64,000 nt of DNA. Source: a phage. Below the pieces are notes generated by a model. It did no database searches and was not told the origin of the DNA. It saw only the letters and a list, made by a program, of their open reading frames with translations. Of the stretch, positions 648 through 46,477 are shown piece by piece (the first letter of the stretch is position 1; each line of letters opens with the position of its first letter). Where the stretch lies: sequence record PV467749.1; one strand, written 5' to 3'. A program made the translations under genes and the position numbers.

Positions 648-680
648 ATTATATCATGTATGGGACGAATGTCCCATACA
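648..680 (-). promoter_or_regulatory. sigma70-like promoter candidate (extended -10 TGATATAAT) overlapping a 10-bp-stem hairpin
   Basis: minus-strand TGATATAAT at 656..648 with GGGACA 16 nt upstream; perfect palindrome TGTATGGGAC-GAAT-GTCCCATACA at 657..680 immediately 3' of the phoH stop. Confidence 0.35.
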
Positions 681-683
681 TTA

Positions 684-2123
684 TTACATATTTTCTTCAG
701 CAAATTCTGCCAGTGGTGAACGAACGACACCTTCTAGTTCGATTACACGACAACCGTCCCAGTTCTTGAACTTCTCGGTAACATAAGTTAGACCGCTGTT
801 AACTGGACTAATGAATTTAGAGTCAATCTGGCTCAAGTTGCCCATAATAACCACTTTACAGTTCATTCCTGCACGAGTCAGGATTGTTTTAGCCTGAGCA
901 GGAGTAATGTTCTGGAATTCATCCACTACTAGGATAGTGTTTGTGAAAGAACGCCCACGAACGAAGTTTAGTGCTTTGAACTGGATAACATTACGTTTCA
1001 TGATTTCTTCGATACTGCCTTGTGGGTTAGCATCATCTTTGTGTAGGAATTCCAACGCATCAATGGCAGCTCCACAGAATGGAATCACCTTCTCTGCCTC
1101 AGAACCTGGCAAGAAACCAATGTCTTCGAATTGGGAATCTTGTGTTTTGGAGAAGATGATACGGTCGTATTTTTTCTTCTCTAGTACTAGCTCCAGTGCA
1201 GTAGCAATGGTGATCAATGTTTTACCAGTACCTGCGGAACCCAACAGTACTGTTAGATGAACATCAGGATCTAGAATACTGTTGATTGCTAGTGCTTGCT
1301 GAATATTCTTAGCCTTGATACCCCACACTTTAGCACGTAAAGCGACTGATTGTCCAACGTCTTGGAATACAAGAATATCTTCTGGTGTTAAAGTACCATC
1401 GTCTTCTTCAATTGCCGATTGACCTTCGTACACAAATAGAACATCAGCATTATCATATAGGTAATCACCGATGCAAATATTTTGTGGCATGATATGTTCA
1501 ATCAAGCTTTTTGGAATGTAGTGATACAAACGGCGACCAACTTGTTCAGATTGGATAGACACATCAGTTAGATTGCTATACACATCCCAAAAATCTAGGT
1601 CGAGGTGATGTTGACCAATGTGAATCAAATCACTATCACCAATCACGATATCATGACGGTAATCTTGAACTTCTACTCCGTAGCTTAGAGCCTTGATACG
1701 CATATTGATATCACGGGTAACCAGTACTGAATCAGTTGCTAATGCTACTAAAATGATTTTATCATCTGGTACTGTGCTTTTTAGAAGAGTTTGAACTTTC
1801 TCTTCGTTACCAGCAGTACGAATTAGTGCTTCAGCTTCTTCGCTTGTAATAACAAACAATTTGCTTTCAGGACTCATATTAGTATGAACATCAGCAATAT
1901 TAACACCAGTACTACTAATTTCTTCATGTGATGCATCAGAAAGGATTGCTTCAATGTTACGGATTGCAACACGAGCATCACGGGAAACATCCACATTACG
2001 ACTTTTGATTGAATCCAATTCTTCAAGTACTGTGAACGGTAGAATGATAGCTGCTCCATCAAAAGCAATGGTAGCATTTGGATCAGATAGTAGTACGTTT
2101 GTGTCAATTGTATATTTTTTCAT
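684..2123 (-). CDS. phoH: PhoH-like ATPase with N-terminal PIN domain (PhoH2/YlaK-type)
   Basis: 479 aa; N-terminal PIN-like acidic residues (IDTNVL...LEELD); Walker A LLGSAGTGKT; Walker B-like VVDEFQN. Confidence 0.85.
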   Translation of the reverse strand: MKKYTIDTNVLLSDPNATIAFDGAAIILPFTVLEELDSIKSRNVDVSRDARVAIRNIEAILSDASHEEISSTGVNIADVHTNMSPESKLFVITSEEAEALIRTAGNEEKVQTLLKSTVPDDKIILVALATDSVLVTRDINMRIKALSYGVEVQDYRHDIVIGDSDLIHIGQHHLDLDFWDVYSNLTDVSIQSEQVGRRLYHYIPKSLIEHIMPQNICIGDYLYDNADVLFVYEGQSAIEEDDGTLTPEDILVFQDVGQSVALRAKVWGIKAKNIQQALAINSILDPDVHLTVLLGSAGTGKTLITIATALELVLEKKKYDRIIFSKTQDSQFEDIGFLPGSEAEKVIPFCGAAIDALEFLHKDDANPQGSIEEIMKRNVIQFKALNFVRGRSFTNTILVVDEFQNITPAQAKTILTRAGMNCKVVIMGNLSQIDSKFISPVNSGLTYVTEKFKNWDGCRVIELEGVVRSPLAEFAEENM

Positions 2124-2184
2124 AAAACATCCTTGAGTTATGAGTACATCCTTGTACTCGACTAATGGTTAGTGACTCGGAATA

Positions 2185-2487
2185 TTACATGCTCGGTTCG
2201 TATTCAACATAACATCTTGAACCACGAGCCTTTTCCTCCCAGCATTCCTGGTAAACTAGTTGACCAATTGATACTGGATCTCTTGATAACCCATTACGAA
2301 CTTCACCAGTACTGGTTTTATAAGTAAATGAGCATTTATTTTCATTACATTGACCTAATCCTATTACAGTCGCTGTATTGTAATGAATATTATAACGTTT
2401 AGTGTTCTCATGATATGAACTGAACCATAGAACACCTATACCTAACAGTGTTGTGCAAATAAGACTCTTGATATGTGTTGAAATCAT
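2185..2487 (-). CDS. hypothetical small protein with hydrophobic N-terminus (signal/TM-like)
   Basis: 100 aa ORF; N-terminal hydrophobic stretch LICTTLLGIGVLWF; several Cys. Confidence 0.5.
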   Translation of the reverse strand: MISTHIKSLICTTLLGIGVLWFSSYHENTKRYNIHYNTATVIGLGQCNENKCSFTYKTSTGEVRNGLSRDPVSIGQLVYQECWEEKARGSRCYVEYEPSM

Positions 2488-2804
2488 AGTGCATTAAATC
2501 CATTAGTTAAGTAAGTTTCAATATTAACTTTCCCTACTGGATTACTACTATGTACATAGTATTTAAATGGTTCTTTAATATTATGCTCAAACATATAATC
2601 AATTAGAAATTTGGCAAAAGTGTATCCAGTTTTCTCATCTGTACTCAAGTCACCCAAGTCATGGTCAAATGAGACAAATGCTGGAATTCCATTTTTGATT
2701 ACGTATTCACATGCACTTTCGTAGTCACGACACAATACCATCTCTTGGTCAGGATAATATTTTTGATAATCACGAATATCATCCAAGAACATTGAGTACG
2801 ACAT
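2484..2804 (-). CDS. hypothetical protein, receiver-domain-like (tentative)
   Basis: 106 aa; motifs FLDDIRD, SFDHDLG, VHSSNPVG recalled from memory as a receiver-like phage family; 4-nt overlap with upstream gene. Confidence 0.45.
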   Translation of the reverse strand: MSYSMFLDDIRDYQKYYPDQEMVLCRDYESACEYVIKNGIPAFVSFDHDLGDLSTDEKTGYTFAKFLIDYMFEHNIKEPFKYYVHSSNPVGKVNIETYLTNGFNAL

Positions 2805-2813
2805 TTTAAACTC

Positions 2814-4114: not shown

Positions 4115-4123
4115 ATTTACTCC

Positions 4124-4315: not shown

Positions 4316-4346
4316 CAGATATACTCTCTCTTTATAATTATTATTC

Positions 4347-5289: not shown

Positions 5290-5898
5290 CTAATGAATGA
5301 TACTACCTAATTCGAGCAACTGATCTGGTGTAAGTCTCACAACTTCATTACCACGAACCTTACTAACCTCCACTAACAATTCTGGAGGAATACCATTCGC
5401 TGCATATAACGCAAATAGAACACCAACCTTAGTTGATAGCTGTTCAGCAAAAATAGTCATTTGGCGAACTGATATGTATGTGTCATCACTATTTCGTGCT
5501 TTACTTTCGATTGACACATTATGTAGACCTAGAATTGAGTCCTTCATCATGTATCTGTTTTCTATATTAGCACTAAAGAATGCGATAGTGCAAGAAGAAT
5601 TACAATATCTTTCAACAATAATTGTTAAATTGTTATCATTGACAAAATTTCCTAGTGCCACTCCCGCATCAAAATCACCACCAGGTGACGTAATGATGAT
5701 AGTGTCAAATGGGTGTGTTTCTCTAAAAACCATCAAACGGTTTACAGTATTTTCAGTTAAAGTTGAAATGAACTGAACTGTCTGTTTAGATTCATCATAT
5801 CTAATGATACTTTTTCTTTCAACACCTGCACTTGCAGGAAAGTTAATTAAGAAAATAATAATAATAGATTGGATGATTTCTTTACATAATCGTACCAC
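5290..5898 (-). CDS. secreted ClpP/SppA-like (S14/S49-type) serine peptidase-like protein
   Basis: 202 aa; hydrophobic signal-like N-terminus; IITSPGGDFDAGVALGNF resembles the ClpP INSPGG region; track start is GTG at 5898. Confidence 0.45.
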   Translation of the reverse strand: MVRLCKEIIQSIIIIFLINFPASAGVERKSIIRYDESKQTVQFISTLTENTVNRLMVFRETHPFDTIIITSPGGDFDAGVALGNFVNDNNLTIIVERYCNSSCTIAFFSANIENRYMMKDSILGLHNVSIESKARNSDDTYISVRQMTIFAEQLSTKVGVLFALYAANGIPPELLVEVSKVRGNEVVRLTPDQLLELGSIIH

Positions 5899-6033
5899 TG
5901 GTTAACCCTCTTAGTTGATTGTTGATTACATAAATAATATTATAGGAAGATTTAACTTAAGTCAAATTGTTTTTTATATCACTTCACAAATTCCCTCACA
6001 GAATCACCCCGCCTTTTTACCTTCTTTTGAATG

Positions 6034-6061
6034 ATTATATCACACTAATGTATAATGTCTA
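6034..6061 (-). promoter_or_regulatory. sigma70-like early promoter candidate (TAGACA-N16-TGATATAAT)
   Basis: minus strand TAGACA (6061..6056), 16-nt spacer including TGA, TATAAT (6039..6034); in the 250-bp noncoding region upstream of CDS 5290..5898; a second weaker TTGACT-N15-TATAAT lies at 5939..5965. Confidence 0.45.
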
Positions 6062-6149
6062 TGCTTTTGTCAACAAATAACGTGGTAGTACTGAACTCGT
6101 TGTTGGTTCTAAGAGTTTTCCTGAAATTCAAATTATCGTGTACTAACAA

Positions 6150-6180
6150 AAGAAAAAGGAGCCTTATGGCTCCTTTTTTT
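6150..6180 (-). terminator. strong bidirectional intrinsic terminator
   Basis: AAAAAGGAGCC-TTAT-GGCTCCTTTTT perfect stem flanked by A-run and T-run; immediately 3' of CDS 6179..6445. Confidence 0.75.
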
Positions 6181-7399: not shown

Positions 7400-7400
7400 G

Positions 7401-8486: not shown

Positions 8487-8816
8487 TTATTCTTTCCCCT
8501 CGTCAGTACTGATGAATTTTTTATCTGAGAATGTGCCGTGTTCTTGACGCATAGCTTCTGCGTGTTGAACTGCGTTAATTGGATTAATGTTCTTTTTAAT
8601 AAGAACTTCTTGCATTAATTCGAGAACAATAGAAAAACCATTGAGTACTCGCTCTGCCTCGTCAACACCTTTCAATTCAATAGCCACTGCACTAATCTGA
8701 TCTAATGCGGTATTAATAAACTCTGAATCATCTAACACATCATTGACTTCAGTATTATTACGTACAAGAACTTTCATATAATCTCCAGAAATAAGATGCC
8801 CCAAATGAGGCATCAA
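8487..8816 (-). CDS. hypothetical protein
   Basis: 109 aa ORF. Confidence 0.5.
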   Translation of the reverse strand: MMPHLGHLISGDYMKVLVRNNTEVNDVLDDSEFINTALDQISAVAIELKGVDEAERVLNGFSIVLELMQEVLIKKNINPINAVQHAEAMRQEHGTFSDKKFISTDEGKE

Positions 8817-8828: not shown

Positions 8829-9524
8829 TTAGACCCACTCTTCCACGCCACCGCGACGTTTGACGAGATACTTACCTTCTTCGTTGCGTGGACCAAGGAT
8901 GATACCATCAATGAAACCATGTTCACCGTATTCGAGTGCTTCTTCAGCGTTCAACCACAGGTCACGATCCGCATCTTTCAGTAGTTGTTCGTGTGATACA
9001 CCAACTGCTTCAGCGATTTCTTTAGTCAGTAGTGTGTTCAATGCATCAGAGTGTTTCAAGGAAATCTTCTGATCAGTAATCAGACCCTGAGTACCGGAAC
9101 TTACTTGGTGACACATGAAGTAAGAACGCTTACCACCTAGACGGAAACCTTTAGTACCAACTACTGATTGTGTATAGCAACCCATTGATGCTGCATAACC
9201 CATTACTACTGTACGGATAGGAGATACACAAGACTTAGCAATGTCAGCGATACCCAAACCTGCGTGTACTGAACCACCAGGAGAACTAATGTAGAAGGTA
9301 ATTGGTTCAGAACCCTGAGAATCCAACCACACCAATTGTTGCTTGATGATATGTGCCATTTGGTCATTGAAGTCAGTATCAAGGAAAATGATACGGTCTT
9401 GCATCATACGAGATGCTAGATCATAAGTACGTTCTGCACCATTAACTTTTTCAACTACATAAGGAATAGAAATGTTGCGAACTTCACCACCAGCATAACC
9501 ACCAAAATTGAATTGTTCAACCAT
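8829..9524 (-). CDS. clpP: ATP-dependent Clp protease proteolytic subunit ClpP
   Basis: 231 aa; SSPGGSVHAGLGI, GYAASMG (catalytic Ser region) and MCHQ (His) motifs; RBS AGAGGAAA; ATG 9524..9522. Confidence 0.85.
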   Translation of the reverse strand: MVEQFNFGGYAGGEVRNISIPYVVEKVNGAERTYDLASRMMQDRIIFLDTDFNDQMAHIIKQQLVWLDSQGSEPITFYISSPGGSVHAGLGIADIAKSCVSPIRTVVMGYAASMGCYTQSVVGTKGFRLGGKRSYFMCHQVSSGTQGLITDQKISLKHSDALNTLLTKEIAEAVGVSHEQLLKDADRDLWLNAEEALEYGEHGFIDGIILGPRNEEGKYLVKRRGGVEEWV

Positions 9525-9558: not shown

Positions 9559-9586
9559 ATTATATCACAGTGTTCGTATTTGTCTA
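9559..9586 (-). promoter_or_regulatory. sigma70-like early promoter candidate upstream of clpP (TAGACA-N16-TGATATAAT)
   Basis: minus strand TAGACA 9586..9581, 16-nt spacer, extended -10 TGATATAAT 9567..9559; -35 overlaps the stop of the upstream gene. Confidence 0.5.
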
Positions 9587-12612: not shown

Positions 12613-13815
12613 TTATAGATAATACTTTCCAATGTAAAGTTTATTACTTAGTGATAGCTGGACGTGACAAGGTTTTTCTTGGTAGTAACGAGTTGATGAT
12701 GTTTTATTTTCAGTCGGTGGGAAGAAAGGAGAACGGTATCCGTTCCATGTACCAAATGATACATGTTCGTTTAAATCCACATCCATTGTCATAATACCAT
12801 TAGCATCAATTTCAACTGGATACGCACTGTATCGTTCAAATACATCAGTGTATTGAAGAATATAATCACCATTACGACCATAATAACTTCTGGTTGTATT
12901 GTTCTTTACACCAAAGAACACACGATATGCTTGGTCACCAACTTTAGACATGAACGGTACGTTCTCGTTGAATCGTCCATTACTCATTATATCATCAGGA
13001 TTGATTTCTTCGTACTTTACTTTCAAATCTTGTGCTTTAAACGACTTATCACTTATCAGTACTGGAATATTGCTTTCACATAATGGGTTACTGCGATTTC
13101 GTTGGATATTTTGCCAAAATGCATTAGCTTTAACAATTTCATCTTGAACTGTAGTTTTTACATTCAGTGCAGCACTTGGTTCTAACGCATAAGTTTCAAG
13201 ACGAGCATTAAGAGCATATGTCCCACGAGTAGTATTATATACTAAGTGATACTTGGAACTCTTATCAGAAAATGAAAACTCTTTAGTTTTCTTGATACAA
13301 ATAGCATTTACTTTACCACAATAATAGTAATCTTCTTTATTGTGTCTAAAACCATCACCCACTTTCAATTTAGAAACAACTTCTTTTTGATGTTCTTTCT
13401 TATTCTCCTTCTCAACCAATTTAGCAAAGGTTTTAGTTTTACCGTTAATTAGTTCTAAACTATTATTAAAGAACATAGGTTCAACAAATACACCCTTAAC
13501 AATATCATTGTTGATGATAAGGTCGTTCATGTTTTTAGCACTCACCAAGAACTCGAAACCTTCAGGGTGACGTATGGTGAAGTATGTTTCGCGAGCATGA
13601 ACAGTGAGCTTATGTACCACAGAAAACCCAATTGTAGGCACATTATCAATCCATAGTGAAGGTAGATTGTTTTTCTTAGCCCAGTACTCGGCCTTTTCTT
13701 TTTTAGTCTCAAACGCTTTTGTGTGTGATTTTGTAGCATCTATAATGTAACCAGTAACTTGGTTATGATTTACATATGAACGAGCCACAAATAACTTCTC
13801 TGGAAAATCCATCAA
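12613..13815 (-). CDS. hypothetical protein (400 aa)
   Basis: long ORF, no motif recognised. Confidence 0.6.
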   Translation of the reverse strand: MMDFPEKLFVARSYVNHNQVTGYIIDATKSHTKAFETKKEKAEYWAKKNNLPSLWIDNVPTIGFSVVHKLTVHARETYFTIRHPEGFEFLVSAKNMNDLIINNDIVKGVFVEPMFFNNSLELINGKTKTFAKLVEKENKKEHQKEVVSKLKVGDGFRHNKEDYYYCGKVNAICIKKTKEFSFSDKSSKYHLVYNTTRGTYALNARLETYALEPSAALNVKTTVQDEIVKANAFWQNIQRNRSNPLCESNIPVLISDKSFKAQDLKVKYEEINPDDIMSNGRFNENVPFMSKVGDQAYRVFFGVKNNTTRSYYGRNGDYILQYTDVFERYSAYPVEIDANGIMTMDVDLNEHVSFGTWNGYRSPFFPPTENKTSSTRYYQEKPCHVQLSLSNKLYIGKYYL

Positions 13816-14459: not shown

Positions 14460-14765
14460 TTATAAAAATGTTAAATATTCAGTACTTAATTGTAATAATT
14501 TACCATCATATTCAATTTCAACATATACATCTTGGTCATAAACAGCAACTACACGACTAATAACTCCACTCTTCACCACATTCTTTTTGTAGTTGAATTC
14601 AACTGAGCAACCAATAAGTTTCTTTGATAGAATCTCACGTATTTGATTAGCATGGTCTTTTAGGATAGAATTAATAGATTTTTTCACAACATATCTATCA
14701 TTTAAGTATTTTTTAACTACATCATGCATATTATTACCTTTTGAAGCGGTTAAATGAGTACTCAT
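14460..14765 (-). CDS. hypothetical protein (loosely related to 17548, 19809, 18136 products)
   Basis: 101 aa; shared pattern ..LIG(K/C)xV..Y..G(V/I)I..V..Y..E by eye. Confidence 0.5.
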   Translation of the reverse strand: MSTHLTASKGNNMHDVVKKYLNDRYVVKKSINSILKDHANQIREILSKKLIGCSVEFNYKKNVVKSGVISRVVAVYDQDVYVEIEYDGKLLQLSTEYLTFL

Positions 14766-15492
14766 CTTTTTCTTTACGTAAGTATCTCATCCCTCCACTT
14801 TGGGGAGTTGCAAGAGTCAAATCACCAGTTAAGAACTGACTATCAATCCAGATACGATTACCATAAATGAGTGGGTCGGATACTGCGGTATGACCACTAA
14901 AGACGCAATGGATACCATCAAGTCTAGGGACGTAATATGTGTTATTTTTCTTGCAGTAGTCGAATGTATCACGGTCCCACAAGCACTTCTCAATTATATC
15001 AGCACTAAGTGATTTTGTCCCACTAACGAAACGTTCCCATGTTGTATATTCCAATGGAACACCAGCATGAACTAGTCCAATCTTCAATCCTCGGTGATTG
15101 ATTTGGATAATCATAGGGAGATCCTTTAAGTACTGACGGAAGAACTGTATACCTGTCTCACCAACTTCATCAATGAACTTATCTCCACCATTTTGTACCC
15201 AACAGTGATGCCAGTCACGGTGAGTTTCAGAATCAACACACATGATCTCGTGGTTCCCAGCAATCATAAAACGGTTTTCACCGAAAAGGAATTCAAACAG
15301 TAGTTTGGAATTCTGGTCACCACGGTCAATAACATCACCTACACAAAAAACATAGTCATTATTGGTGATACCAAATTCTTTCTTGGTAGCATCCCACAGT
15401 TTTCCGTTGCCGTGTAAATCACCAACGATATATAAATCTTTATCATCCGGTACTGTAACTTCCAAAAAATGTTTCATTATTGTTCCAACCAT
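14734..15492 (-). CDS. PPP-family Ser/Thr protein phosphatase (lambda-phosphatase/ApaH-like)
   Basis: 252 aa; GDLHG, GDVIDRG, GNHE signature motifs. Confidence 0.8.
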   Translation of the reverse strand: MVGTIMKHFLEVTVPDDKDLYIVGDLHGNGKLWDATKKEFGITNNDYVFCVGDVIDRGDQNSKLLFEFLFGENRFMIAGNHEIMCVDSETHRDWHHCWVQNGGDKFIDEVGETGIQFFRQYLKDLPMIIQINHRGLKIGLVHAGVPLEYTTWERFVSGTKSLSADIIEKCLWDRDTFDYCKKNNTYYVPRLDGIHCVFSGHTAVSDPLIYGNRIWIDSQFLTGDLTLATPQSGGMRYLRKEKDEYSFNRFKR

Positions 15493-16283: not shown

Positions 16284-16880
16284 TTAATCACAGCTACCGG
16301 AACTAGAACTTGAGCTTGAATCACAACTAGAGCTATCATATGAACCAGTATCAGCAGAAGAGATATATGGTGTCACGACTGCTGCTGCGGTAGTTGCTGC
16401 AATAATATGGGAAGTATGGTCGTGTGTACCTTGTTGTGGTTCATCTTGGACTTTGTTTTTATTCTTCCCTTTAGTATAGCGAGCTTTCTTTGTAGTTTTG
16501 GTGTTCTTTGGTGCTTTAGTACTTTTCGGTGCTGCTTTAGGCTTTACTTCATTAACTACAGGAACAACAGTAACATTAACTTTAGGGTCAGATTCATCAA
16601 GTGCATTGTGAACATTCACTTGCATTTGAACTTCAACTTTAAGTTCTTCTTGTTCTTCAGGAATAACTTTTTCAGGTTCTGGTGTAACCTGATCACGTTT
16701 ATCATTAATCATGAAGTTGATATTACGTTCACCTAGCACTAATAAAGTAACGATGGTGAGTACTGGGGTTAGTACTAGACTAAGTAGTACATAGCCGATA
16801 ACACTACGATTGTAATTGTATGCAAGCATACCTGCAATAACTACACCAAGTACACTAATAACTGCTGCGATTGTTAACAT
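16284..16880 (-). CDS. membrane protein with Lys-rich and Ser-rich low-complexity tail
   Basis: 198 aa; N-terminal TM segments; KAAPKSTKAPKNTKTTKKARYTKGKNKNK then SSSCDSSSSSSSGSCD C-terminus. Confidence 0.55.
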   Translation of the reverse strand: MLTIAAVISVLGVVIAGMLAYNYNRSVIGYVLLSLVLTPVLTIVTLLVLGERNINFMINDKRDQVTPEPEKVIPEEQEELKVEVQMQVNVHNALDESDPKVNVTVVPVVNEVKPKAAPKSTKAPKNTKTTKKARYTKGKNKNKVQDEPQQGTHDHTSHIIAATTAAAVVTPYISSADTGSYDSSSCDSSSSSSSGSCD

Positions 16881-17184
16881 ATTCTACTCCTTTGTATATA
16901 AATTTACCAATATCTTCGATGTATAAACAGATTCCATCTCGTTCATTTAACACAAGCCAATCACCAAAACCACAACTGATGTTGCATATATTAAATTCTT
17001 CAATACCATCCGGTGAATACGCAATGAATGGACATATTTCATCTGATATACCATTTACATAGTTATTACATATTAAATCAAATGTATGTGAACTATAAGA
17101 ATTATCAGTACTGAAAATGTGCATTAATGAACTAGATAGAATTACTATTGTTTTTTCCCACATTTTTAAAAAATCGTTATTCAC
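16855..17184 (-). CDS. hypothetical Cys-containing protein
   Basis: 109 aa; track start is GTG 17184 with GGAG 9 nt upstream. Confidence 0.5.
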   Translation of the reverse strand: MNNDFLKMWEKTIVILSSSLMHIFSTDNSYSSHTFDLICNNYVNGISDEICPFIAYSPDGIEEFNICNISCGFGDWLVLNERDGICLYIEDIGKFIYKGVEYVNNRSSY

Positions 17185-17215: not shown

Positions 17216-17243
17216 ATTATATCACCGAATCAAGATATGTCTC
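17216..17243 (-). promoter_or_regulatory. sigma70-like promoter candidate (GAGACA-N16-TGATATAAT)
   Basis: minus-strand TGATATAAT 17224..17216 with GAGACA 16 nt upstream, in the gap between CDS 17242..17547 and 16855..17184. Confidence 0.4.
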
Positions 17244-17547
17244 ATGAGATTCGCATTTCATCCAGATATAAACTACATGCTTCGAAATTGTTGTCAGCAC
17301 TTAAACCTAAATCAACCATCAGACCACAATGCGTTCCACAGAATTTCTTTATGTATAGTTTCTTATTGTTTGTACCTAAGTCGTATACATATTCATTTTC
17401 GAAAATAGTTTTTAAATCATTACAAATACTTTTTACTATCTTCATTACATCATTATGATACTCATATGGTATTCCATCTAGTTCATCAATGATAATAGCA
17501 AAACCATTGTCATAGTACTTTAGTTTATTGAATGTTTGTATATCCAT
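17242..17547 (-). CDS. hypothetical protein
   Basis: 101 aa ORF. Confidence 0.5.
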   Translation of the reverse strand: MDIQTFNKLKYYDNGFAIIIDELDGIPYEYHNDVMKIVKSICNDLKTIFENEYVYDLGTNNKKLYIKKFCGTHCGLMVDLGLSADNNFEACSLYLDEMRIS

Positions 17548-22060: not shown

Positions 22061-22721
22061 CAGACAAAGATTCGTTGTACTGATGCCTGAAATTAGTATT
22101 TGGATTATTTGTCATTGTACTAATAAAATCAAATTTAACATTCTCTTGAATGTAATTAATAACATTATCTTTAAATTTAATAGTACTGAAATCTAAATCC
22201 AAATGTTCATACAATACAGGATGACAAAACTCATGTGTACGCAATGATGGCATGGTATCCTTAATGTATTGCACAGTGTTAATCATTGCATTGTACTCAG
22301 GCATAGCACGCATCATCATTAGCTGAAAGTGTTCTTCCTCTGACATTGACTCATCCAAATCAATAACTACTTCATCATTTTTAGAGTCATATACTTTAAT
22401 GGAACTCTTTGTTGGATCAAGCATAGCCCACTCTGGATACAGGCATGTTTTCCAAAAAGGATTATTGCACTGAAACATACTAATGAGATTTTGATTTTTA
22501 TCAAAAATAGCAAATCCAAGATCCGAACTTGGCTGTACTTCACATACACAAATATCATAAGGGGAGTCTTCAGTACTGAATGATCCAACTACATTTGATA
22601 TATGTGAATATGGAGTTTCTCTTGATTTTAATTCAAAGGCTCTCTCCATACGATTAACCTGCGGTTGTAATGTAATTACACCCCTCAGTACATATAAAAT
22701 TCTATCTAAATCTTTAATCAA
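22032..22721 (-). CDS. hypothetical protein carrying the family-A-like core (SEEEHFQLMMM) and an HEFCH motif
   Basis: 229 aa; SMSEEEHFQLMMMRAM resembles the array core motif; HEFCH fits HExxH but no further zincin evidence. Confidence 0.55.
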   Translation of the reverse strand: MIKDLDRILYVLRGVITLQPQVNRMERAFELKSRETPYSHISNVVGSFSTEDSPYDICVCEVQPSSDLGFAIFDKNQNLISMFQCNNPFWKTCLYPEWAMLDPTKSSIKVYDSKNDEVVIDLDESMSEEEHFQLMMMRAMPEYNAMINTVQYIKDTMPSLRTHEFCHPVLYEHLDLDFSTIKFKDNVINYIQENVKFDFISTMTNNPNTNFRHQYNESLSGGRDTTWWK

Positions 22722-24692: not shown

Positions 24693-25625
24693 TCATATTT
24701 TTAATTTATTTTCGAGTAAACATTTACATATATAATCAATAACAAGATTTATATCTTGTAAATCAAATGTTTCAGTATACCCATCGCCAAAATAATCCTT
24801 TGGCAATTTACTACTATTTTTAAGCAGATTTAAAATATTATATTCTACACTTTTAATAACTTCGGTATTACCAGTAAAATAATATAATTCCTCTACTATA
24901 AAATTAGTTTTTGACCTAATACTAATTAGTCTCGATTTATCAATCTTTGTAGAAATACCAACTTTATATTTTATTAAAATATTTTGTTCATATATTCCTA
25001 AAATATATAATTTACTTTCTTCTGGGATTGGTCTGATACAATTGCAGTTAAGAGTTCCACATTTAACTCTACTATAATTAATATATTTGTCAAAATTACA
25101 CGCTGTACAATAAAATCTAACCTTATATTGTGTGCCACGATATGTAGATTTATCCATATATATTGTATTTGAGTAATCTTTTATTTTATTCATAATAGTA
25201 TTATATGCTTCGTCGATATTTAACGGCATACAATATAATGAATGACATTTACAATATGAACCTCTAGACTTAACATCATGTACAGTCATATATCTTTCAA
25301 AGGCACAATCATCACAATAAAATCTAGATTTGTTTTTTGTAGTTGTGAATGTGGAAATATCTAATTTTAATTTTGAATTAATTTCACCCAATTTATTATA
25401 TAAAGTTTTAAATGTGGGACAATGACAAAATATCCCATTTTTGTACACATTCCTAACTATGATATTTTTACAAAACCCACATTCATCACAGAAAAAAGTT
25501 GATTTGTTTGATATGGTTGTGTATGTTGTTCTATCCATTTTTACCGATGAACCAATTGAACTCAATTTTTCATCAACCAGTCTGAATACTTCAGAATCTG
25601 GCTTTTTACTTGGCACTTTACACAC
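24693..25625 (-). CDS. T5orf172-domain (GIY-YIG-like) protein with three tandem Cys-rich zinc-finger-like modules
   Basis: 310 aa; three repeats of K-x-x-F-x-C-x-x-C-x-F...C-x-C; C-terminal LYILGIYEQNILIKYKVGISTKIDKSRL matches the T5orf172 'Y..G....KIG.T....R' pattern as recalled; track start is GTG. Confidence 0.6.
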   Translation of the reverse strand: MCKVPSKKPDSEVFRLVDEKLSSIGSSVKMDRTTYTTISNKSTFFCDECGFCKNIIVRNVYKNGIFCHCPTFKTLYNKLGEINSKLKLDISTFTTTKNKSRFYCDDCAFERYMTVHDVKSRGSYCKCHSLYCMPLNIDEAYNTIMNKIKDYSNTIYMDKSTYRGTQYKVRFYCTACNFDKYINYSRVKCGTLNCNCIRPIPEESKLYILGIYEQNILIKYKVGISTKIDKSRLISIRSKTNFIVEELYYFTGNTEVIKSVEYNILNLLKNSSKLPKDYFGDGYTETFDLQDINLVIDYICKCLLENKLKI

Positions 25626-25656: not shown

Positions 25657-25684
25657 ATTATATCACTACTTGAGCTATTGTCCC
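25657..25684 (-). promoter_or_regulatory. sigma70-like promoter candidate (GGGACA-N16-TGATATAAT)
   Basis: minus-strand TGATATAAT 25665..25657 with GGGACA 16 nt upstream, in the gap upstream of CDS 24693..25625. Confidence 0.4.
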
Positions 25685-25977
25685 GCTTTGTAACAATAAA
25701 GATTCTCAAATTTAAAGTTCTCTATATCACATTCCTCACGAACTCGGTTCTTGTTCCAGAACAGAATACGAATCCTTTCATAATCACGATAAACACTAAT
25801 AATACTTTTGTGTTTAGATTTGTAGTACTGCTGTATAACCTGAAGAGTTATATCCCTCAACTTGGACTTAATTGGGTAAGACATATCATTACTAGTTGTT
25901 ATGGTATAAACCATCTTCATCGTTTCAGCAACAAGTACTTCATTCGATTTATTTGCCATTAAAATCCTTACAAACAC
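25675..25977 (-). CDS. hypothetical protein
   Basis: 100 aa ORF. Confidence 0.5.
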   Translation of the reverse strand: MFVRILMANKSNEVLVAETMKMVYTITTSNDMSYPIKSKLRDITLQVIQQYYKSKHKSIISVYRDYERIRILFWNKNRVREECDIENFKFENLYCYKAGQ

Positions 25978-29475: not shown

Positions 29476-30009
29476 TTATTTCCTCATGTATTTTATTACA
29501 TCTTCAAATAGTTTAGTTTTCAGTGCATCATCATTACCAGGTAGAAAAGTACTGAAGCTATTAAAATCTTCATTCTTGGCAAACTCACGCATCTGTGTGG
29601 AACTGTAGCGACTTACATTTCGGTCAATTCCAGCTTGAACTGCCTTGATTGAACAAAAATTATATAACTTCCCATTGTACGTGTCAAGTGTTTTTTGGAA
29701 TGGTTCAAGTCTGTCTGAACCACATATGAAAAGAACATCTAAGTACTTTCCATCCAGTTCTCTCATTATATCAAACAGATTATCTTCTGTATAGATATTT
29801 TCTTGTACAGATGGGTAAAATCCTTCTGTATAGTACATTTTCAGTTCAGGAGGTAATGGGTTTTTGACGGCATCAGTACTGGTACTAAGGAATATTTTCA
29901 AATCAGCATTGTACTGTTCTTGTAGTGCTTGAGCTTTTTCAAACACTAAACCATGACCTCGATGTATTGGGTTACATCTCATGAATGATAGTATACATGT
30001 TTCTTTCAT
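29476..30009 (-). CDS. HxGH-motif nucleotidyltransferase, NadD/NMNAT-like (NMN or NaMN adenylyltransferase candidate)
   Basis: 177 aa; N-terminal SFMRCNPIHRGHG resembles the (T/H)xGH motif of NadD (FDPIHYGH) and related cytidylyltransferase-fold enzymes. Confidence 0.55.
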   Translation of the reverse strand: MKETCILSFMRCNPIHRGHGLVFEKAQALQEQYNADLKIFLSTSTDAVKNPLPPELKMYYTEGFYPSVQENIYTEDNLFDIMRELDGKYLDVLFICGSDRLEPFQKTLDTYNGKLYNFCSIKAVQAGIDRNVSRYSSTQMREFAKNEDFNSFSTFLPGNDDALKTKLFEDVIKYMRK

Positions 30010-31092: not shown

Positions 31093-31711
31093 TATTCCTA
31101 TGGAAACATCAATGACTGTACATGGCGTTGACTTCATCAACACCAGTCGAATTATACACGCTTCGCATGTCTAATTCGACGAAAGTACTATGATTTGTTT
31201 TAATTAATATTGACGGGGTTTGCTTGAGCATATTTCATCCCCCCGCAGGGGAAAGAACAAAAAAAGTTTGACGCTGGTGGCCTTCACATAGTTCATATCA
31301 CGAATTCTCTTACGAGGCGAAAGCGGGTTGCTCTGTTTCTCTCTATCGCGGTTCTTGTAGCAACGGTCGTCGGTCTTAAACATCCCGACACATAATACAA
31401 ATACCATATGACCAGTACTTGTATTTGATTTCACGAATTTTGGACGCAACTATATTGTATAAATTACGACCGCAAATTTCTCATGAAATCTCCCTTAGAT
31501 AATTGGTAAGGTGCGATCCTTATATGTCTATCGAGGAACTCTCTTTATCCTATTGGAGTTCTTTATACAGCCGCATTGCCGTGAGTGGTTCAAACTATGC
31601 CATCATCTAACGGGTTTCATTTGCTGTTCGTACTGAAAGGACTACTCATCTACCCTCTACTTTTCGAGTGGATTAGGCTTTAATCATTTCCATATGGAAC
31701 CTTTCAGGATT
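31093..31711. other. ORF-free, GC-enriched island (~620 bp): candidate structured ncRNA(s) or regulatory/origin region
   Basis: no ORF of 60 aa or more on either strand apart from an implausible 81-aa frame; visibly higher G+C than flanks; local hairpins (GTCGG..CCGAC; GTTGCT..AGCAAC); TATAAT near 31151; no tRNA T-loop motif found. Confidence 0.3.
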
Positions 31712-31745
31712 AAAAAAAGGCGACAACATATTCTGCTGTCACCTT
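31712..31745 (-). terminator. intrinsic terminator 3' of CDS 31774..32622
   Basis: minus-strand hairpin GGUGACAGCA-GAAUAU-GUUGUCGCC (10 bp with two G-U pairs) followed by U7. Confidence 0.6.
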
Positions 31746-31773
31746 ACATTATATCATAAACTTATGGTATGTC

Positions 31774-32622
31774 TCAGTTGTATTCTGTTTTTTCAGTGAA
31801 ATTAGTTAAGATATCTGCACTTAAGCTTCTCATAACCTCAATCTTACTTGGCATGAACCTGTGCTTGTTTTTTACATACAACTCATCATCTTCAATGAAA
31901 GATGTGAACATGAATACCATATCTTCACGTGGAATTGAGAGAATATTACAGTTTTCATTTTCAGCAACAGGGGAATCATTGTAGTACTTAGAGAATGCAG
32001 TACTTTGACGACCGATTATGATAGAATTTCGGATTAGAAAATTACTACAGTACTGAAAATCTTTGTAGTACTTGTCAAGGATATATGGCATTATCGCTTC
32101 TTTCACTTCTTCATATCCATTTGAACTATCAATTGCAGTACAATAATCTTCTCGGTCTTTATTCCCTCGATGATTATCAAACTCGTACTCAAAGAATAAA
32201 TTTTCATTTAATGAATTATTTGAACCAACTGATCCACTATAGTATGATTTTCTATCATTCATTCGATCATCGGGGCATGATGCATACATAGAAATGTCAT
32301 GTGTTGACGTACCGATATAAATTTTCTTAGTAATGTGATTGTACGCGATGTAATCATAATCTTGTACTCCAGTGAGCATTAACTGGAACATCAATTCATC
32401 AGGAACATCAATCAACGGGTACTCAAACTTCGAATATCTACTACGACAGAAATTCTTTTCAAATGCTCGATATGCGATGAAATCTTTTAGGTTTGTAATA
32501 GATTCATGCTCATGTGTATTACTGGTGCGTACATTGACATTAGTAGACGAGCAATACCCTTCAGATTCTTCTGTGTAGTCATAATAACCCTTACTGTAGT
32601 CAACGATTAGATAAAGTTTCAT
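31774..32622 (-). CDS. hypothetical Tyr/Asn/Asp-rich protein
   Basis: 282 aa ORF. Confidence 0.6.
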   Translation of the reverse strand: MKLYLIVDYSKGYYDYTEESEGYCSSTNVNVRTSNTHEHESITNLKDFIAYRAFEKNFCRSRYSKFEYPLIDVPDELMFQLMLTGVQDYDYIAYNHITKKIYIGTSTHDISMYASCPDDRMNDRKSYYSGSVGSNNSLNENLFFEYEFDNHRGNKDREDYCTAIDSSNGYEEVKEAIMPYILDKYYKDFQYCSNFLIRNSIIIGRQSTAFSKYYNDSPVAENENCNILSIPREDMVFMFTSFIEDDELYVKNKHRFMPSKIEVMRSLSADILTNFTEKTEYN

Positions 32623-33030: not shown

Positions 33031-33417
33031 TTAGATTACGTCATACGGTAGAGTACCGTGACGGAATTTATCAAGTTGTGCAAGAACTTCTTTACGTTCG
33101 ACAATCTCTGGCACATCTTCTTGCAGTTGGTCACATACTTCAACGATGAAATCCCAATCGCTCTCACAACTCACACGTACTGCTTCAATTGTTTTCCAAT
33201 CAGCACTAATTTCACCTTCAGGATTTACATACGAAGGCCATACCTTTCCATAGTCTTGTACTGATTTGTCGTTAAGAACACGAATAGCATTGAAAATCTG
33301 TCCAGTACTGAAGTGTTTAGTATTCTTCATGTCTTCTAAGCAACATAGCTTAGGTTCACCCTGGACTTCAATCAGAAGTACACCACCAATAGCTTTTAGA
33401 ACAGAACTTGTATTCAT
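33031..33417 (-). CDS. hypothetical protein
   Basis: 128 aa ORF. Confidence 0.55.
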   Translation of the reverse strand: MNTSSVLKAIGGVLLIEVQGEPKLCCLEDMKNTKHFSTGQIFNAIRVLNDKSVQDYGKVWPSYVNPEGEISADWKTIEAVRVSCESDWDFIVEVCDQLQEDVPEIVERKEVLAQLDKFRHGTLPYDVI

Positions 33418-33488
33418 CTATATCTCCATTTATCAAAAAAAGATGTGAACATTATATCACAAGGAATTGTCATGTCCACAATATTTTA

Positions 33489-34814: not shown

Positions 34815-35288
34815 TTACTCCAAATCGGGATCTTTAACTGTTAGGCTTTCAATATCACTTGCGTAAAGAACTACATTAGTTTGTGTCTCTGATACTTTAA
34901 AATCATGATAACTATCTTTCACTTTAAAATTATCCAAAATAAACCCTTTACTACAACACATCATGATTTTATCATCTTTGATAGTGTATGTATTCTTTTT
35001 CTTACGTACTTCAGATTGTGGGGTAATATTATCATTGTTACGAATAACACAATCAATGTACTCGTCATTTGTACTCATAGGCATACCCATGATAAACGAA
35101 TTACTAGTACTGATTGTTAGTATAAAAACATTAGTATTTGGATTGTGAAAGAAGTCGTGCATAGTTTTACTGCATAAAAACAAGCACTGAATTATGTCCT
35201 TTACATTGAACATTATATCATGAACTTTGAATGCGTCCAACTCTAAAATGTCATCTATCTTTCCATTCTCAACAGTTTTAATCTCCAT
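34815..35288 (-). CDS. hypothetical protein
   Basis: 157 aa ORF, no family-A motif. Confidence 0.55.
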   Translation of the reverse strand: MEIKTVENGKIDDILELDAFKVHDIMFNVKDIIQCLFLCSKTMHDFFHNPNTNVFILTISTSNSFIMGMPMSTNDEYIDCVIRNNDNITPQSEVRKKKNTYTIKDDKIMMCCSKGFILDNFKVKDSYHDFKVSETQTNVVLYASDIESLTVKDPDLE

Positions 35289-39311: not shown

Positions 39312-39322
39312 GTAGTTCTCCG

Positions 39323-42534: not shown

Positions 42535-42599
42535 ATCTTCTCCTGTACTCTGTTAAAAGCGATTATAACACACCTGAATGCTCATGTAAAGCACTAAAC

Positions 42600-42621
42600 A
42601 CAAAAAGACCCATAAGGGTCT
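42600..42621 (-). terminator. intrinsic terminator inside the array
   Basis: AAGACCC-ATAA-GGGTCTT stem followed on the minus strand by TTTGTGTTT; directly 3' of CDS 42622..43206. Confidence 0.55.
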
Positions 42622-43699: not shown

Positions 43700-44238
43700 A
43701 ATTGTACCTTCAATATTTTATCAGCAATTGATATAACCTTGTCATTGAATACATTACCAATTTCAATTCTTATATACATCGCAGGTGGAATCTTTCCCTG
43801 AAGTGCATAATATGTTTGTATACCTAAGTACTCATTATTTGATAATGAAAATTTGATTCTCTCCATATCTATGTCTGATTTTGGTAAATCTAAGAATTCA
43901 TGATGGAAGTCAACATTTTCAGTGTATATCTGTTCGACGTAATTTGAATAGTCACTACTAATGTAGATGCTATCATCACGAACAATTACTTTATAATCAG
44001 AAGGTTCAAACTTATCTTTAGGAGAAAAGAAGACATCATCTATCTTCTCTTCTCGTATACCGAATAACAATTTACCATCGTACTTTACATCAAGCATACT
44101 ACCTAGAATAGTAATTACACAATGTTCATCAATGTCATGACGTAATGAACGAGTCTTGTATTTTGGGTTAATGAAAATTTTCATTAATTTTATACAAATG
44201 TCGGCAATGCATTTTACATTATCATTTTCTATGTACAT
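43696..44238 (-). CDS. array ORF, family A membership uncertain
   Basis: 180 aa; weak core MERIKFSLSNN. Confidence 0.5.
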   Translation of the reverse strand: MYIENDNVKCIADICIKLMKIFINPKYKTRSLRHDIDEHCVITILGSMLDVKYDGKLLFGIREEKIDDVFFSPKDKFEPSDYKVIVRDDSIYISSDYSNYVEQIYTENVDFHHEFLDLPKSDIDMERIKFSLSNNEYLGIQTYYALQGKIPPAMYIRIEIGNVFNDKVISIADKILKVQL

Positions 44239-44716
44239 CGTAAATCCTCTTTAATTCTTTTACATTTTTAATGAATACTTTCATTGCAGAAATCTCAAAA
44301 GCTAATGATTTAAATTTGCAGTACTTTTTAAAGTACGACATAATGAATAGCATTTTGAGTTCTTTTTCTGTGTAAATTAAACTATTTTGAAAGTAACTTT
44401 CTTCTGATAAATCATCAAGAAAAGGATATACAACTCCATTTGGAGTCAAGAACATGACACGTTCACTCCAAGATCTAAATGAAATGTAATCAGTCTTACC
44501 ACATTCATATAAGGAGTTTATCATTCCGTCAATCATTAAGGAGAACTCAATACTGTATCCTAATCGTTGACACTTGTATCTCTTATCTTCTTTCTTTGTA
44601 ATTACAAAGTGACGACCCAATGCGTCTTTGTTATCGAAAATGAAATCAACTGTCTCTAAACACTCCTTAGCGAACTTTATAGTTTCTCTGTACTTTCGGT
44701 TCATTAGTCTCTCCAA
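44222..44716 (-). CDS. array family A member
   Basis: 164 aa; core EESYFQNSLI. Confidence 0.6.
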   Translation of the reverse strand: MERLMNRKYRETIKFAKECLETVDFIFDNKDALGRHFVITKKEDKRYKCQRLGYSIEFSLMIDGMINSLYECGKTDYISFRSWSERVMFLTPNGVVYPFLDDLSEESYFQNSLIYTEKELKMLFIMSYFKKYCKFKSLAFEISAMKVFIKNVKELKRIYDVHRK

Positions 44717-45117
44717 ACTTTACCAGGGAAGTGTTTCTCGTAGAACTCATCATCACTTAACATATAATCAGGTGTTTCTACTTCTATGGGTTTGTAGAAT
44801 GTTTCTGGAATGTGTGTAATTTTATTGGGTAGTACTTTATGTTCGCGTAAAACCTTCTGTATAGCTCCTAGACGTTGTAAATCAATACAGCCCGGCAGAA
44901 CTAAGCTGTACTGAAATAGCTCATCAGGGGTCATTATAGATACATCCTTGGCTTGTTTGATTTTATTGTTGGCATTAATGAATATATCAAATCCAAGTAC
45001 TGCATTATAGCTTACATATGTTGTTTTGTTTTTGTCAATAGCTGCACTTAAACTATATCCATATATTCCATGTTGGTCAACAATGCATCGTTGCATAATT
45101 TTAATCATTTCGAACAT
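44704..45117 (-). CDS. array family A member
   Basis: 137 aa; core PDELFQYSLV. Confidence 0.6.
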   Translation of the reverse strand: MFEMIKIMQRCIVDQHGIYGYSLSAAIDKNKTTYVSYNAVLGFDIFINANNKIKQAKDVSIMTPDELFQYSLVLPGCIDLQRLGAIQKVLREHKVLPNKITHIPETFYKPIEVETPDYMLSDDEFYEKHFPGKVWRD

Positions 45118-45463
45118 AATTTACCTCGTATGTGTTATAATTCCACGTTTTAACACTATCCATTTGTATATCCTGAACTTCATGGAAATATTTAAGTACC
45201 TTCTGGTATTCCATTAGTTCGTACACATCTTCAGTATTGACAGTGCTCTCCTGAAACAATTCCTCTTCTGATAAAGTACTATAATCAGGGATTTTTATTT
45301 CAGAATATATCTCATTCATATATGAATCATTTTGGTAAATCTGTAGATAAAACTGATTATATTCAGGGATATAGGTTACGAAATGGTTCTTGATGAATTC
45401 ATATCTTGAAGCAAAGCAATCATTGCCATCCGTCATGTACTGAATTGTTGTTGTATTATGCAT
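45101..45463 (-). CDS. array family A member
   Basis: 120 aa; core EEELFQESTV. Confidence 0.6.
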   Translation of the reverse strand: MHNTTTIQYMTDGNDCFASRYEFIKNHFVTYIPEYNQFYLQIYQNDSYMNEIYSEIKIPDYSTLSEEELFQESTVNTEDVYELMEYQKVLKYFHEVQDIQMDSVKTWNYNTYEVNYVRND

Positions 45464-45938
45464 TCAAATAATCCACGCATTTATGGTATACATCTAAATC
45501 TAAAAAGAATCGTTGTTTGTATTTGTAATGATGAAGTAGTGCACCATAAAGTAATATAGCATTAAGTACTTTTGCATCATGAATACAAGACCCTTGGAAG
45601 TACATTTCTTCTGTCATGAAAACTAACTCATTGTACGGGATAAGCACTGAATCTCTAAATGTATCAATGTTAATCTTCAAATCGGACCCTTGGCAATATG
45701 AAATATATTCACCTCGGTAATGAAAGTCATTATCGTCAAAGTACTCAGCATATACTTGATTGTTCCTATTATTTTTAAAGGCAAGTCTTCCTTTGGTTGA
45801 ACTGAATTGGTCATATTGGAACATTCCACCAAAAGGCATTCCACCGAAAGGTTGGGGACTTCTGAACTCCTTTGCAATGCGATGAATGTTAGATGCAAAT
45901 TCTAAAACACCATCGTAATCATATTCTGTTGTAATCAT
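45456..45938 (-). CDS. array family A member
   Basis: 160 aa; core EEMYFQGSCI. Confidence 0.6.
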   Translation of the reverse strand: MITTEYDYDGVLEFASNIHRIAKEFRSPQPFGGMPFGGMFQYDQFSSTKGRLAFKNNRNNQVYAEYFDDNDFHYRGEYISYCQGSDLKINIDTFRDSVLIPYNELVFMTEEMYFQGSCIHDAKVLNAILLYGALLHHYKYKQRFFLDLDVYHKCVDYLNA

Positions 45939-46414
45939 AGACCATTTTTCTCCATGTACTCAATGATTTCATCTACGAAGTTTAAATCCATATAGAATCT
46001 ATCATTTGCGTCATTGAGTTCATCTTTAAGTACTGTAAAAATTGTAGAACTAAACACGATTCTCTCATTGTACAAAGTACTGTACTGGAAGAATTCTTCT
46101 TCTGATCTAACATTAAATGTGTCATATTCATCATCATCATTAGATCTAGGATGATAGTACTTAAAACTATCAGATGTATGGAAACAATATGAGATAAAAT
46201 CCCCTGATGGTGCATCGTCAAGTACACGAATACCACAGAAATTCTCATCTGTAGTATGCAACAAATTGCTATTCATTGACAAATAATTTTTGTACGCATA
46301 AAGTGTGCATCGTGGGAGAATTATATTCTCTTTAACTGTTACAAGGAACTTATGAAGTTTAATGATATTTTGTGCGATTTTTTGTGCATTGCTAAATGAT
46401 AGGTCTTTGGACAT
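45935..46414 (-). CDS. array family A member
   Basis: 159 aa; core EEEFFQYSTL; AAAGGG RBS. Confidence 0.6.
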   Translation of the reverse strand: MSKDLSFSNAQKIAQNIIKLHKFLVTVKENIILPRCTLYAYKNYLSMNSNLLHTTDENFCGIRVLDDAPSGDFISYCFHTSDSFKYYHPRSNDDDEYDTFNVRSEEEFFQYSTLYNERIVFSSTIFTVLKDELNDANDRFYMDLNFVDEIIEYMEKNGL

Positions 46415-46447
46415 TGTGATATAACCCTTTACAATTAATATAAAGAG

Positions 46448-46477
46448 ATTATATCACAAAGATTTGGAGGGTGTCAA
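46448..46477 (-). promoter_or_regulatory. near-consensus sigma70-like promoter inside the array (TTGACA-N18-TGATATAAT)
   Basis: minus strand TTGACA 46477..46472, 18-nt spacer, TGATATAAT ending 46448; -35 overlaps the stop of CDS 46474..47064. Confidence 0.5.

Follow-up and report, generated by a model that had tools for sequence, protein, structure and literature searches.

What kind of promoter, if any, is formed by the nonamer TGATATAAT, which recurs in a 64,000-nt stretch of DNA from a jumbo coliphage (sequence record PV467749.1, the whole of which is referred to here as the window)? A sequence-only reading had listed six copies, near positions 648, 6034, 9559, 17216, 25657 and 46448, each with a GACA-type hexamer upstream, and had taken them as early promoters of the host sigma-70 type. 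All six are present at those positions on the minus strand with the hexamers described, and the spacer to TATAAT, given as 16-18 nt, is 16 nt at five of them and 18 nt at 46448. Six more sense copies had not been listed (12986, 14993, 29765, 31748, 33451 and 35212). We consider it likely that the eight intergenic copies, and perhaps one or two of those within genes, are promoters belonging to a family of about 25-30 members, and that this family forms a separate class of delayed-early or middle-like character, not an immediate-early one.

With the jumbo coliphages Ecwhy_1 and fEgEco12 the window shares 99% identity, and with PBECO4, 121Q and phAPEC6 about 83-87%; these phages belong to the genus Asteriusvirus of the Rak2-like group. 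Its minus strand carries every real gene, and 6.1% of its length is intergenic. The counterpart in fEgEco12 is roughly 26-90 kb, reversed, which puts the window just downstream of the left terminal repeat and the block of very small genes that goes with it. The whole fEgEco12 genome was assembled for genome-wide motif counts, its + strand being the strand with most genes. Conservation was assessed by a site-by-site comparison with phAPEC6 (about 83% identical).

The TGATATAAT family in the window and in fEgEco12

There are 13 exact copies of TGATATAAT in the window compared to 3.4 expected, and none of 100 shuffled sequences contained 13 or more. Twelve are in the sense (minus) direction and one is antisense; GACA-N15-18-TATAAT is likewise found 12 times in sense and never in antisense. 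The small intergenic fraction holds eight of the 12 sense copies (binomial P = 8e-8), and the nonamer is 31-fold denser there. The four copies within open reading frames (ORFs) are near the number expected by chance (Poisson P = 0.08). All eight intergenic copies have an xxGACA box upstream of the TG, at a distance of 13 nt, or 15 nt in one, and at six of the eight the start codon is 30-34 nt past the −10. Exact TATAAT is present in all 12 sense copies and in family members genome-wide. The canonical TTGACA is seen at only one of the eight intergenic sites (46448).

A weight matrix trained only on 17 fEgEco12 sites outside the region homologous to the window gave 13 sense hits in the window and none in antisense, with a shuffle mean of 0.38. 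A generic sigma-70 consensus scan of the window, by comparison, gave 111 matches with 94.6 expected, which is not above chance, so that it is the extended motif itself, and not AT-richness in general, that carries the signal. A footprint was also apparent against phAPEC6: at 648, 17216, 25657, 31748, 33451 and 46448 the boxes are kept or are one base off, and the spacers have drifted. At 648 both boxes are kept with one base added to the spacer, and at 25657 both are kept with the spacer rewritten. The hexamer has become GAGACG at 17216, with TGATATAAT kept and the spacer different, and TGAACA at 33451, where the −10 and leader persist beside an altered spacer. The sites at 31748 and 46448 are conserved, the latter with spacer changes, and the upstream part of the 6034 site could not be aligned. 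The site at 9559 has the top weight-matrix score in the window (27.5); its orthologues read TGGACA-N13-TGATATAAT in a 121Q-type genome and TTGACA-N13-TGTTACAAT in RaK2.

Whole fEgEco12 contains 40 copies of TGATATAAT on the + strand and six on the − strand, and those on the + strand all lie within 45-318 kb. Alignment of the 24 sites with N13 spacing gave the family consensus [G/T][G/A]GACA-N13-TG[A/C]TATAAT, with a 16-nt spacer to TATAAT and counts of [G13/T9][G11/A8]GACA in the box and TG[A16/C6]TATAAT in the −10. The base before TG is G in 17 of the 24 sites, T stands two bases before TG in 11, a weak tract rich in A spans about −44 to −39, and the start codon is about 31 nt past the −10. 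The motif search proposed in the sequence-only reading, run in both the window and this genome, therefore found what that reading supposed, an enriched, sense-biased nonamer with a partner GACA box. Its claim of a promoter family is borne out by sense orientation, intergenic position and fixed distances to the hexamer and to the start codons, and the sites do subdivide the co-directional train of genes into transcription units, as it had proposed.

The −35 hexamer is not of the TTGACA type, beginning with TT in five of the 24 sites. Both of its first two positions are purines in 17 of the 24 (P = 1.5e-5), and C occurs at neither, which argues for selection for purines and not mere relaxation from TT. 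Among GACA-N-TATAAT sites of fEgEco12 a non-TT hexamer is linked to TGn, which is present in 22 of 25 such sites compared to six of 43 TTGACA sites (Fisher P = 1e-9), and the linkage holds with all repeat-region sites removed (P = 3e-4).

Within the window the sites precede the small gene that follows PhoH, two genes for protease-like proteins (ClpP among them) and several genes whose function is unknown. In the rest of fEgEco12, copies stand ahead of the genes for the sliding clamp, primase, an exonuclease and a Clp ATPase, and a tandem pair precedes the gp32 single-strand-binding gene. GGGACA-N13-TGCTATAAT at 191,007 precedes g336, a homologue of the T4 late sigma factor, which suggests that the class acts before the late phase. 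The match of g336 to the PHROG 'sigma factor for late transcription' starts at residue 36, downstream of the TGCTATAAT promoter. As the promoter lies inside the annotated 5' end and the match begins beyond it, the annotation of g336 (L005 974-1912) probably starts about 35 codons too early. The motif nTAAATA is separately enriched in fEgEco12 upstream regions and likely marks late promoters. No further shared motif that might serve a phage sigma factor as a distinct target came out of a k-mer and by-eye search of the remaining fEgEco12 intergenic DNA.

Terminal-repeat promoters and related phage lineages

The label 'early' given to the family was not supported. None of the 40 + strand copies in fEgEco12 is in the terminal-repeat early region, nor anywhere in 0-45 kb or beyond 318 kb, and that region has promoters of other consensus. 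In the terminal repeats (1-21 kb, and again 355-374 kb) a promoter precedes nearly every small gene, about 34 per copy of the repeat. One family, with about 22 per copy, is aaaaAGTACTTGCA-N16-GTATAATGTTTTACATC followed by a hairpin (also written AGTACTTGCA-N16-GTATAATGTTTTACATC). The other, with 12 per copy, has TTGACA at a 16-nt spacer, most members being TTGACA-N6-7-AGTACTGTATAATAGTTTACATC (also written TTGACA-N6-7-AGTACTGTATAATAGTTTA). AGTACT adjoins a promoter element in both, and downstream there are ACATC and a G-rich 5' hairpin such as gagagcgggaacacttcccg. These promoters share with the TGATATAAT family a TATAAT −10, a 16-nt spacer, an A-rich upstream tract and a position directly before small genes. 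They differ in having TTGACA or TTGCA as the −35, in the adjoining AGTACT (found near only three of the 24 sites of the TGATATAAT family), in the absence of TG at −15/−14, in carrying GTTTTACATC or AGTTTACATC and a 5' hairpin downstream, and in their restriction to the repeats.

No promoter description or transcriptome for Asteriusvirus was found in the literature. In the paper on phage CBB a second possible promoter was predicted, called 'divergent RpoD-like', with a classic −10 and TGAAACG replacing TTGACA (PMC5259590). Promoter 1 of CBB, TGAAACG-N13-TGGTATAAT, has 18 sites, of which 11 precede genes for DNA synthesis, and the same motif was reported for GAP32; sequences in Table S6, such as TGAAACGTAAGGAATTTTTCTGCTATAAT, have the form box-N13-TGnTATAAT, and late promoters of the TAAATA type were also proposed for CBB (PMC5259590). 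On sequence grounds, the TGATATAAT family is the Asteriusvirus version of the promoter type already predicted in CBB and GAP32. The geometry is identical, with a non-TTGACA box exactly 13 nt before TGnTATAAT; both sets stand before DNA-synthesis genes, with one member before the late-sigma gene (Porf_244 in CBB, g336 in fEgEco12), and there are orthologous tandem pairs before gp32. The two predicted sets differ in the box, which is TGAAACG or TGGAACG in CBB and GAP32 and GGGACA, GAGACA or TGGACA in Asteriusvirus, and in the base after TG, which is G in the former and mostly A or C in the latter.

The upstream regions of gp32 were fetched from IMG/VR for relatives. Two tandem promoters were found before gp32 in every lineage fetched, with a hexamer specific to the lineage. 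The sites are GGGACA-N13-TG[A/C]TATAAT in 121Q-type genomes, GGGACA-N14-TGATATAAT in Munch/7t3-like genomes, and GAAAC[GA] or GGAACG-N13-TGGTATAAT in GAP32/CBB/BF-like genomes. RaK2 has one full TGAACA-N13-TGATATAAT and a second TGAACA without the TG; the RaK2-type TGAACA box is based on three sites only. The −10 part is thus the same in all these lineages, and it is the box and the base following TG that depend on lineage. In 2.9 million viral contigs (IMG/VR) there were 81 matches to GGGACA-N13-TGATATAAT, and several per contig were seen only in a 121Q-type genome (6) and two other genomes of about 360 kb. GAAACG-N13-TGGTATAAT gave many matches per genome in GAP32-, BF- and fHe-Yen9-04-type genomes and their relatives, and none in 121Q or RaK2 contigs among the 80 matches listed. 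For TGAACA-N13-TGnTATAAT there was mostly one match per contig among the matches listed. An unrelated-looking viral contig of 195 kb, IMGVR_UViG_3300026549_000033, has five TGAACA-N13-TGnTATAAT within 5 kb, so a promoter of similar design may be in use in another phage.

Candidate readers of the box

The TRTGn motif marks the extended −10 promoters of E. coli sigma-70, and these resemble the TGATATAAT family in having TG one base before TATAAT, a preference for T and G at the two preceding positions, and a weak or non-canonical −35. They differ in that they have no conserved alternative −35 box, whereas that of the TGATATAAT family is purine-selected and lineage-dependent. The middle promoters of T4, which depend on MotA and AsiA, are also similar, as they form a second temporal class, located ahead of genes for replication and nucleotide metabolism, in which a host-type −10, often with TGn, is combined with a phage-specific upstream element that replaces the −35. 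The T4 MotA box is (a/t)(a/t)(a/t)TGCTTtA, centred near −30. No box of the TGCTTtA type centred at −30 is seen in the 24-site alignment, where the conserved element is xRGACA at −35, and the Rak2-like phages have an RpoD-like sigma where T4 has none. The nonamer is different from the T4-type late promoter, which has a TATAAATA-like −10 and no −35 and stands before structural genes. In the Thermus phage P23-45, as Tagami is said to have described in 2014, extended −10 phage promoters work on under gp39 and gp76 while −35-dependent promoters are shut off. Those middle and late promoters offer a precedent for a temporal switch; unlike the TGATATAAT family they have no conserved −35-like box.

The fEgEco12 annotation contains no RNA polymerase genes and two sigma genes, the late-type g336 and the RpoD-like g519 (L007 16080-17048), which matches Sigma70_r2, Sigma70_r3 and RpoD_Cterm. 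Homologues of g519 are present in all Rak2-like lineages and are fast-diverging (Ecwhy_1 99.7%, PBECO4 59%, RaK2 39%, Munch 36%, BF 34%). Some 5 kb upstream of the gene there is a TTGACA-N13-TGGTATAAT promoter, which should be readable by host sigma-70. The fEgEco12 paper lists the RpoD-like Gp519 as missing from Ecwhy_1; a full-length 99.7% match to g519 was found by tblastn at 1665-2630 of Ecwhy_1 (MH791411), annotated 'similar to RNA polymerase sigma factor'.

In the mechanism we propose, the class would re-initiate transcription inside long co-directional gene trains, from positions before nucleotide-metabolism, protease and replication genes and the late-sigma gene. The host core RNA polymerase would be used, since the phage has sigma genes but none for a polymerase. 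Promoter strength would come mainly from the near-invariant extended −10, so that a canonical TTGACA contact would not be needed for initiation, and the purine-rich xRGACA box at the −35 position would serve as a specificity element particular to the phage lineage. The position of the box at −35, its invariant AC, the selection for purines and the retention of GAAACG with a match of only 2/6 to TTGACA argue that a phage-specified reader is needed. The likeliest one would be region 4 of the phage RpoD-like sigma; host sigma-70, either contacting the −35 sub-optimally or assisted by a phage helper, would be less likely. The identification of the RpoD-like sigma as the reader is put forward tentatively. 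The RpoD-like sigma would be made from a promoter readable by sigma-70 and would then direct the host core polymerase to xRGACA-N13-TGnTATAAT, and this middle phase would in turn switch on the gp55-like late sigma. It is possible, with a similar degree of reserve, that the promoters of this family constitute the regulon of the RpoD-like sigma characteristic of the 'group 2' (Rak2-like) jumbo phages, and that the box co-evolves with region 4.2. An alignment to E. coli sigma-70 shows the core-binding region to be retained in the fEgEco12 sigma, and its region 4.2 helix to be divergent, with only R584 kept. The proposed pairs of helix and box would be R-x-x-x-H-R with GGGACA (Asteriusvirus, Munch-like), R-x-x-x-H-Y with TGAACA (RaK2) and K-x-x-x-S-R with GAAACG (BF/CBB/GAP32-like).

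Several points weigh against a phage sigma as the reader. The residues W433, W434, Q437, T440, H455 and E458 of sigma-70 read the −10 and TG. They are not kept in the fEgEco12 sigma (W433T, W434T, Q437M, T440Y, H455Y, E458V), which argues for host sigma-70 at the −10. The −10 hexamer is invariant over lineages whose sigmas differ strongly in regions 2.4 and 3.0, and the −10, including T/G at −17/−16, is the exact extended −10 consensus of E. coli sigma-70. GGGACA matches TTGACA at 4/6 positions, TTGACA itself occurs in six fEgEco12 family members (one in the window and five elsewhere in the genome), and the RaK2 site before ClpP has TTGACA. The covariation of sigma helix and hexamer, drawn from four lineages only, is suggestive and not clean. 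No transcript 5' ends or timing data for this phage group were found in the literature, so the timing of the class, the form of the polymerase and the identity of its reader are what we infer, whereas the family, its distribution, its conservation and its variation between lineages were computed directly.

It is unlikely, though several of these points favour it, that the sites are ordinary sigma-70 early promoters used by the unmodified E. coli holoenzyme from the start of infection. The xxGACA box would then be a degraded −35, either tolerated as TGn compensates for it or selected against over-strong promoters that escape poorly. The perfect TRTGnTATAAT −10 with its A-rich UP-like tract fits such an origin, as does GACA as the 3' two-thirds of TTGACA. 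In addition, the distantly related PA5oct is sensitive to rifampicin, and promoters of the TTGAC/TATAATA kind are found at its mapped starts. Against it stand the absence of the family from the early terminal-repeat region with its different consensus families, and the positive selection for G or A, never C, at the first two hexamer positions. Moreover, in the GAP32/CBB lineage several related genomes each retain many GAAACG sites, and a box which was not read would not be kept in this manner. To our knowledge all the hosts share essentially the same sigma-70, yet the box differs by phage lineage. From the original description of the sites as host-sigma-70-type, then, the perfect extended −10 is supported and the plain sigma-70 −35 is not.

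Still less probable, in our estimate, is a form of sigma appropriation in which host sigma-70 reads the extended −10 and a putative phage protein reads the lineage-specific box. It could involve an anti-sigma factor that frees or remodels region 4 of sigma-70, like MotA/AsiA in T4. The pattern of a constant, host-like −10 and an upstream box that varies by phage lineage is consistent with this, and extended −10 promoters resist inhibition of the AsiA type. A tblastn search of fEgEco12 with AsiA, however, gave nothing below E = 2, a weak test as the query sequence was approximate and remote homologues could escape it. Pfam and PHROG searches were uninformative for three fEgEco12 'transcription regulator' genes, and for one DksA-like gene they pointed to no useful family other than DksA/TraR. 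The box is exactly at −35 with a 16-nt spacer and is not centred at −30 like the MotA box, and its invariant AC fits the arginine of sigma region 4.2, R584 being kept in most of the phage sigmas.

That the nonamer is no transcription signal at all, but stems from coding or codon bias, belongs to a repeat family or marks some other DNA site, for example one bound in packaging or replication, is very improbable: although four of the 12 sense copies are inside ORFs and generic sigma-70 matches in this AT-rich DNA are at chance, the intergenic density and strict strand bias, the fixed distances to the partner box and start codons, and the conservation of boxes with variable spacers, which the coding copy at 12986 does not share, all contradict it. 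A repeat-family origin was rejected since the flanks of the copies are unrelated, and coding bias was rejected on the intergenic enrichment and the non-conserved coding copy.

Individual sites, neighbouring features and significance

The coordinates of the sites and related features are given in Table 1. The remark that several copies directly follow a stop codon or a terminator proved accurate: the upstream stop is inside the −35 hexamer at 9559, 17216, 31748 and 46448 and in the spacer at 25657, and a terminator at 6153-6178 precedes the 6034 site. The 280-nt intergenic region 5899-6178 (−) contains that terminator, the 6034 promoter and a promoter-like TTGACT-N15-TATAAT at 5939-5965. The 6034 promoter would yield a leader of about 129 nt before the GTG of gene 5290..5898.

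Table 1. Copies of TGATATAAT and related features in the window. Distances to start codons are measured from the −10 where so indicated.
Feature	Position	Strand	Context
Predicted promoter GGGACA-N13-TGATATAAT	648..675	−	66-nt gap between PhoH-like gene 684..2123 and small gene 420..617; start codon 30 nt past −10
Predicted promoter TAGACA-N13-TGATATAAT	6034..6061	−	About 90 nt past terminator 6153-6178; 135 nt before GTG of gene 5290..5898
Predicted promoter TAGACA-N13-TGATATAAT	9559..9586	−	Before ClpP-like protease gene 8829..9524; TAG of upstream gene is the hexamer start
Predicted promoter GAGACA-N13-TGATATAAT	17216..17243	−	Before gene 16855..17184; TGA of gene 17242..17547 overlaps hexamer
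Predicted promoter GGGACA-N13-TGATATAAT	25657..25684	−	Before gene 24693..25625; hexamer in last codons of gene 25675..25977, its TAG in spacer
Predicted promoter GAGACA-N13-TGATATAAT	31748..31775	−	TGA of gene 31774..32622 overlaps hexamer
Hairpin then seven T	31712..31743	−	Few bases past expected 31748 start point; −14.5 kcal/mol, z = −3.95
Predicted promoter TGGACA-N13-TGATATAAT	33451..33478	−	71-nt gap before gene 33031..33417
Predicted promoter TTGACA-N15-TGATATAAT, 18-nt spacer	46448..46477	−	Before gene 45935..46414, paralogue-rich region; TGA of gene 46474..47064 inside TTGACA
Candidate internal promoter GGGACA-N14-TGATATAAT	14993..15021	−	In Ser/Thr phosphatase gene 14734..15492; 227 nt before next gene
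Candidate internal site TGGACG-N13-TGATATAAT	35212..35239	−	68 nt inside ORF 34815..35288
TGATATAAT in coding region, no upstream GACA box	12986..12994	−	
TGATATAAT in coding region, only TATACA upstream	29765..29773	−	Uniformly conserved coding block (phAPEC6)
Sole antisense TGATATAAT copy, no GACA partner	52776..52784	+	Chance match
Related intergenic promoter-like TTGACA-N14-TGATATAGT	62119..62147	−	One mismatch from nonamer
Related intergenic promoter-like TTGACA-N14-TGGTACAAT	57594..57622	−	Just past T-run
Related intergenic promoter-like TTTACA-N14-TGTTATAAT	42562..42590	−	Directly past terminator hairpin

The hairpin next to the 31748 site has a G·U pair in its stem which is A-U in phAPEC6. 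It may be the terminator of the upstream gene, an attenuator, or the stop of a very short RNA, and the 31748 promoter may be wedged between a stop codon and the terminator of that same gene. A 324-nt stretch free of ORFs follows the hairpin. Rfam and tRNA scans of the whole window, this stretch included, gave no match, and the folding of 31450-31705 was no better than that of shuffled sequences (z = −1.07).

The copies within genes vary in quality. That at 14993 is a candidate internal promoter; it spans ten consecutive codons without a synonymous change in 121Q or phAPEC6, and other 30-nt windows of the phosphatase gene are equal in this respect. A search for relatives of that gene found one locus only. 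The copy at 35212 is conserved in phAPEC6, as is the entire surrounding coding block. The copy at 12986, where phAPEC6 reads TGATCTTAT, and that at 29765 are probably chance matches.

Some further differences and repeats were noted in the window. The offset between two BLAST anchors implies that fEgEco12 is about 1.5 kb longer somewhere in the interval 12000-36000. The ORF at 24693..25625 (310 amino acids) corresponds to a 729-nt gene in fEgEco12, which is one local difference. By BLASTP the ORFs of 100-200 amino acids at 44222-54048 and 61200-63970 (−) form several small paralogue families, for example one of six members in 44222-52754 and one of five in 47015-54048, and the 'array' of the sequence-only reading is thus a mosaic of families and no single repeat. 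The palindrome TCAGTACTGA, with at most one mismatch, occurs 48 times in the window with 2.9 expected (as at 8503-8512, 17105-17114, 22570-22579 and 62261-62270). Exact CAGTACTG occurs 35 times with about 0.6 expected, all 35 being in ORFs and in all three frames, and AGTACT occurs 187 times with about 21 expected. In fEgEco12 there are 261 copies, densest in the terminal repeats.

The sites provide a first map of transcription units for 64 kb of a jumbo coliphage that is largely unannotated, and with them at least three promoter classes can be named in the genome: the early promoters of the terminal repeats, the TGATATAAT class, and the TAAATA-type late promoters. As compact cassettes of about 60 bp comprising promoter and ribosome site, they could also serve phage engineering. 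The modest added interest of this member of a known promoter type is in the lineage-specific box and its testable tie to the hallmark sigma factor of the group. The same architecture is present in at least four Rak2-like lineages with a changing box, so the part played by the phage RpoD-like sigma can be put to a direct test. If that role is as proposed, each phage lineage would have a private promoter code set on a shared −10.

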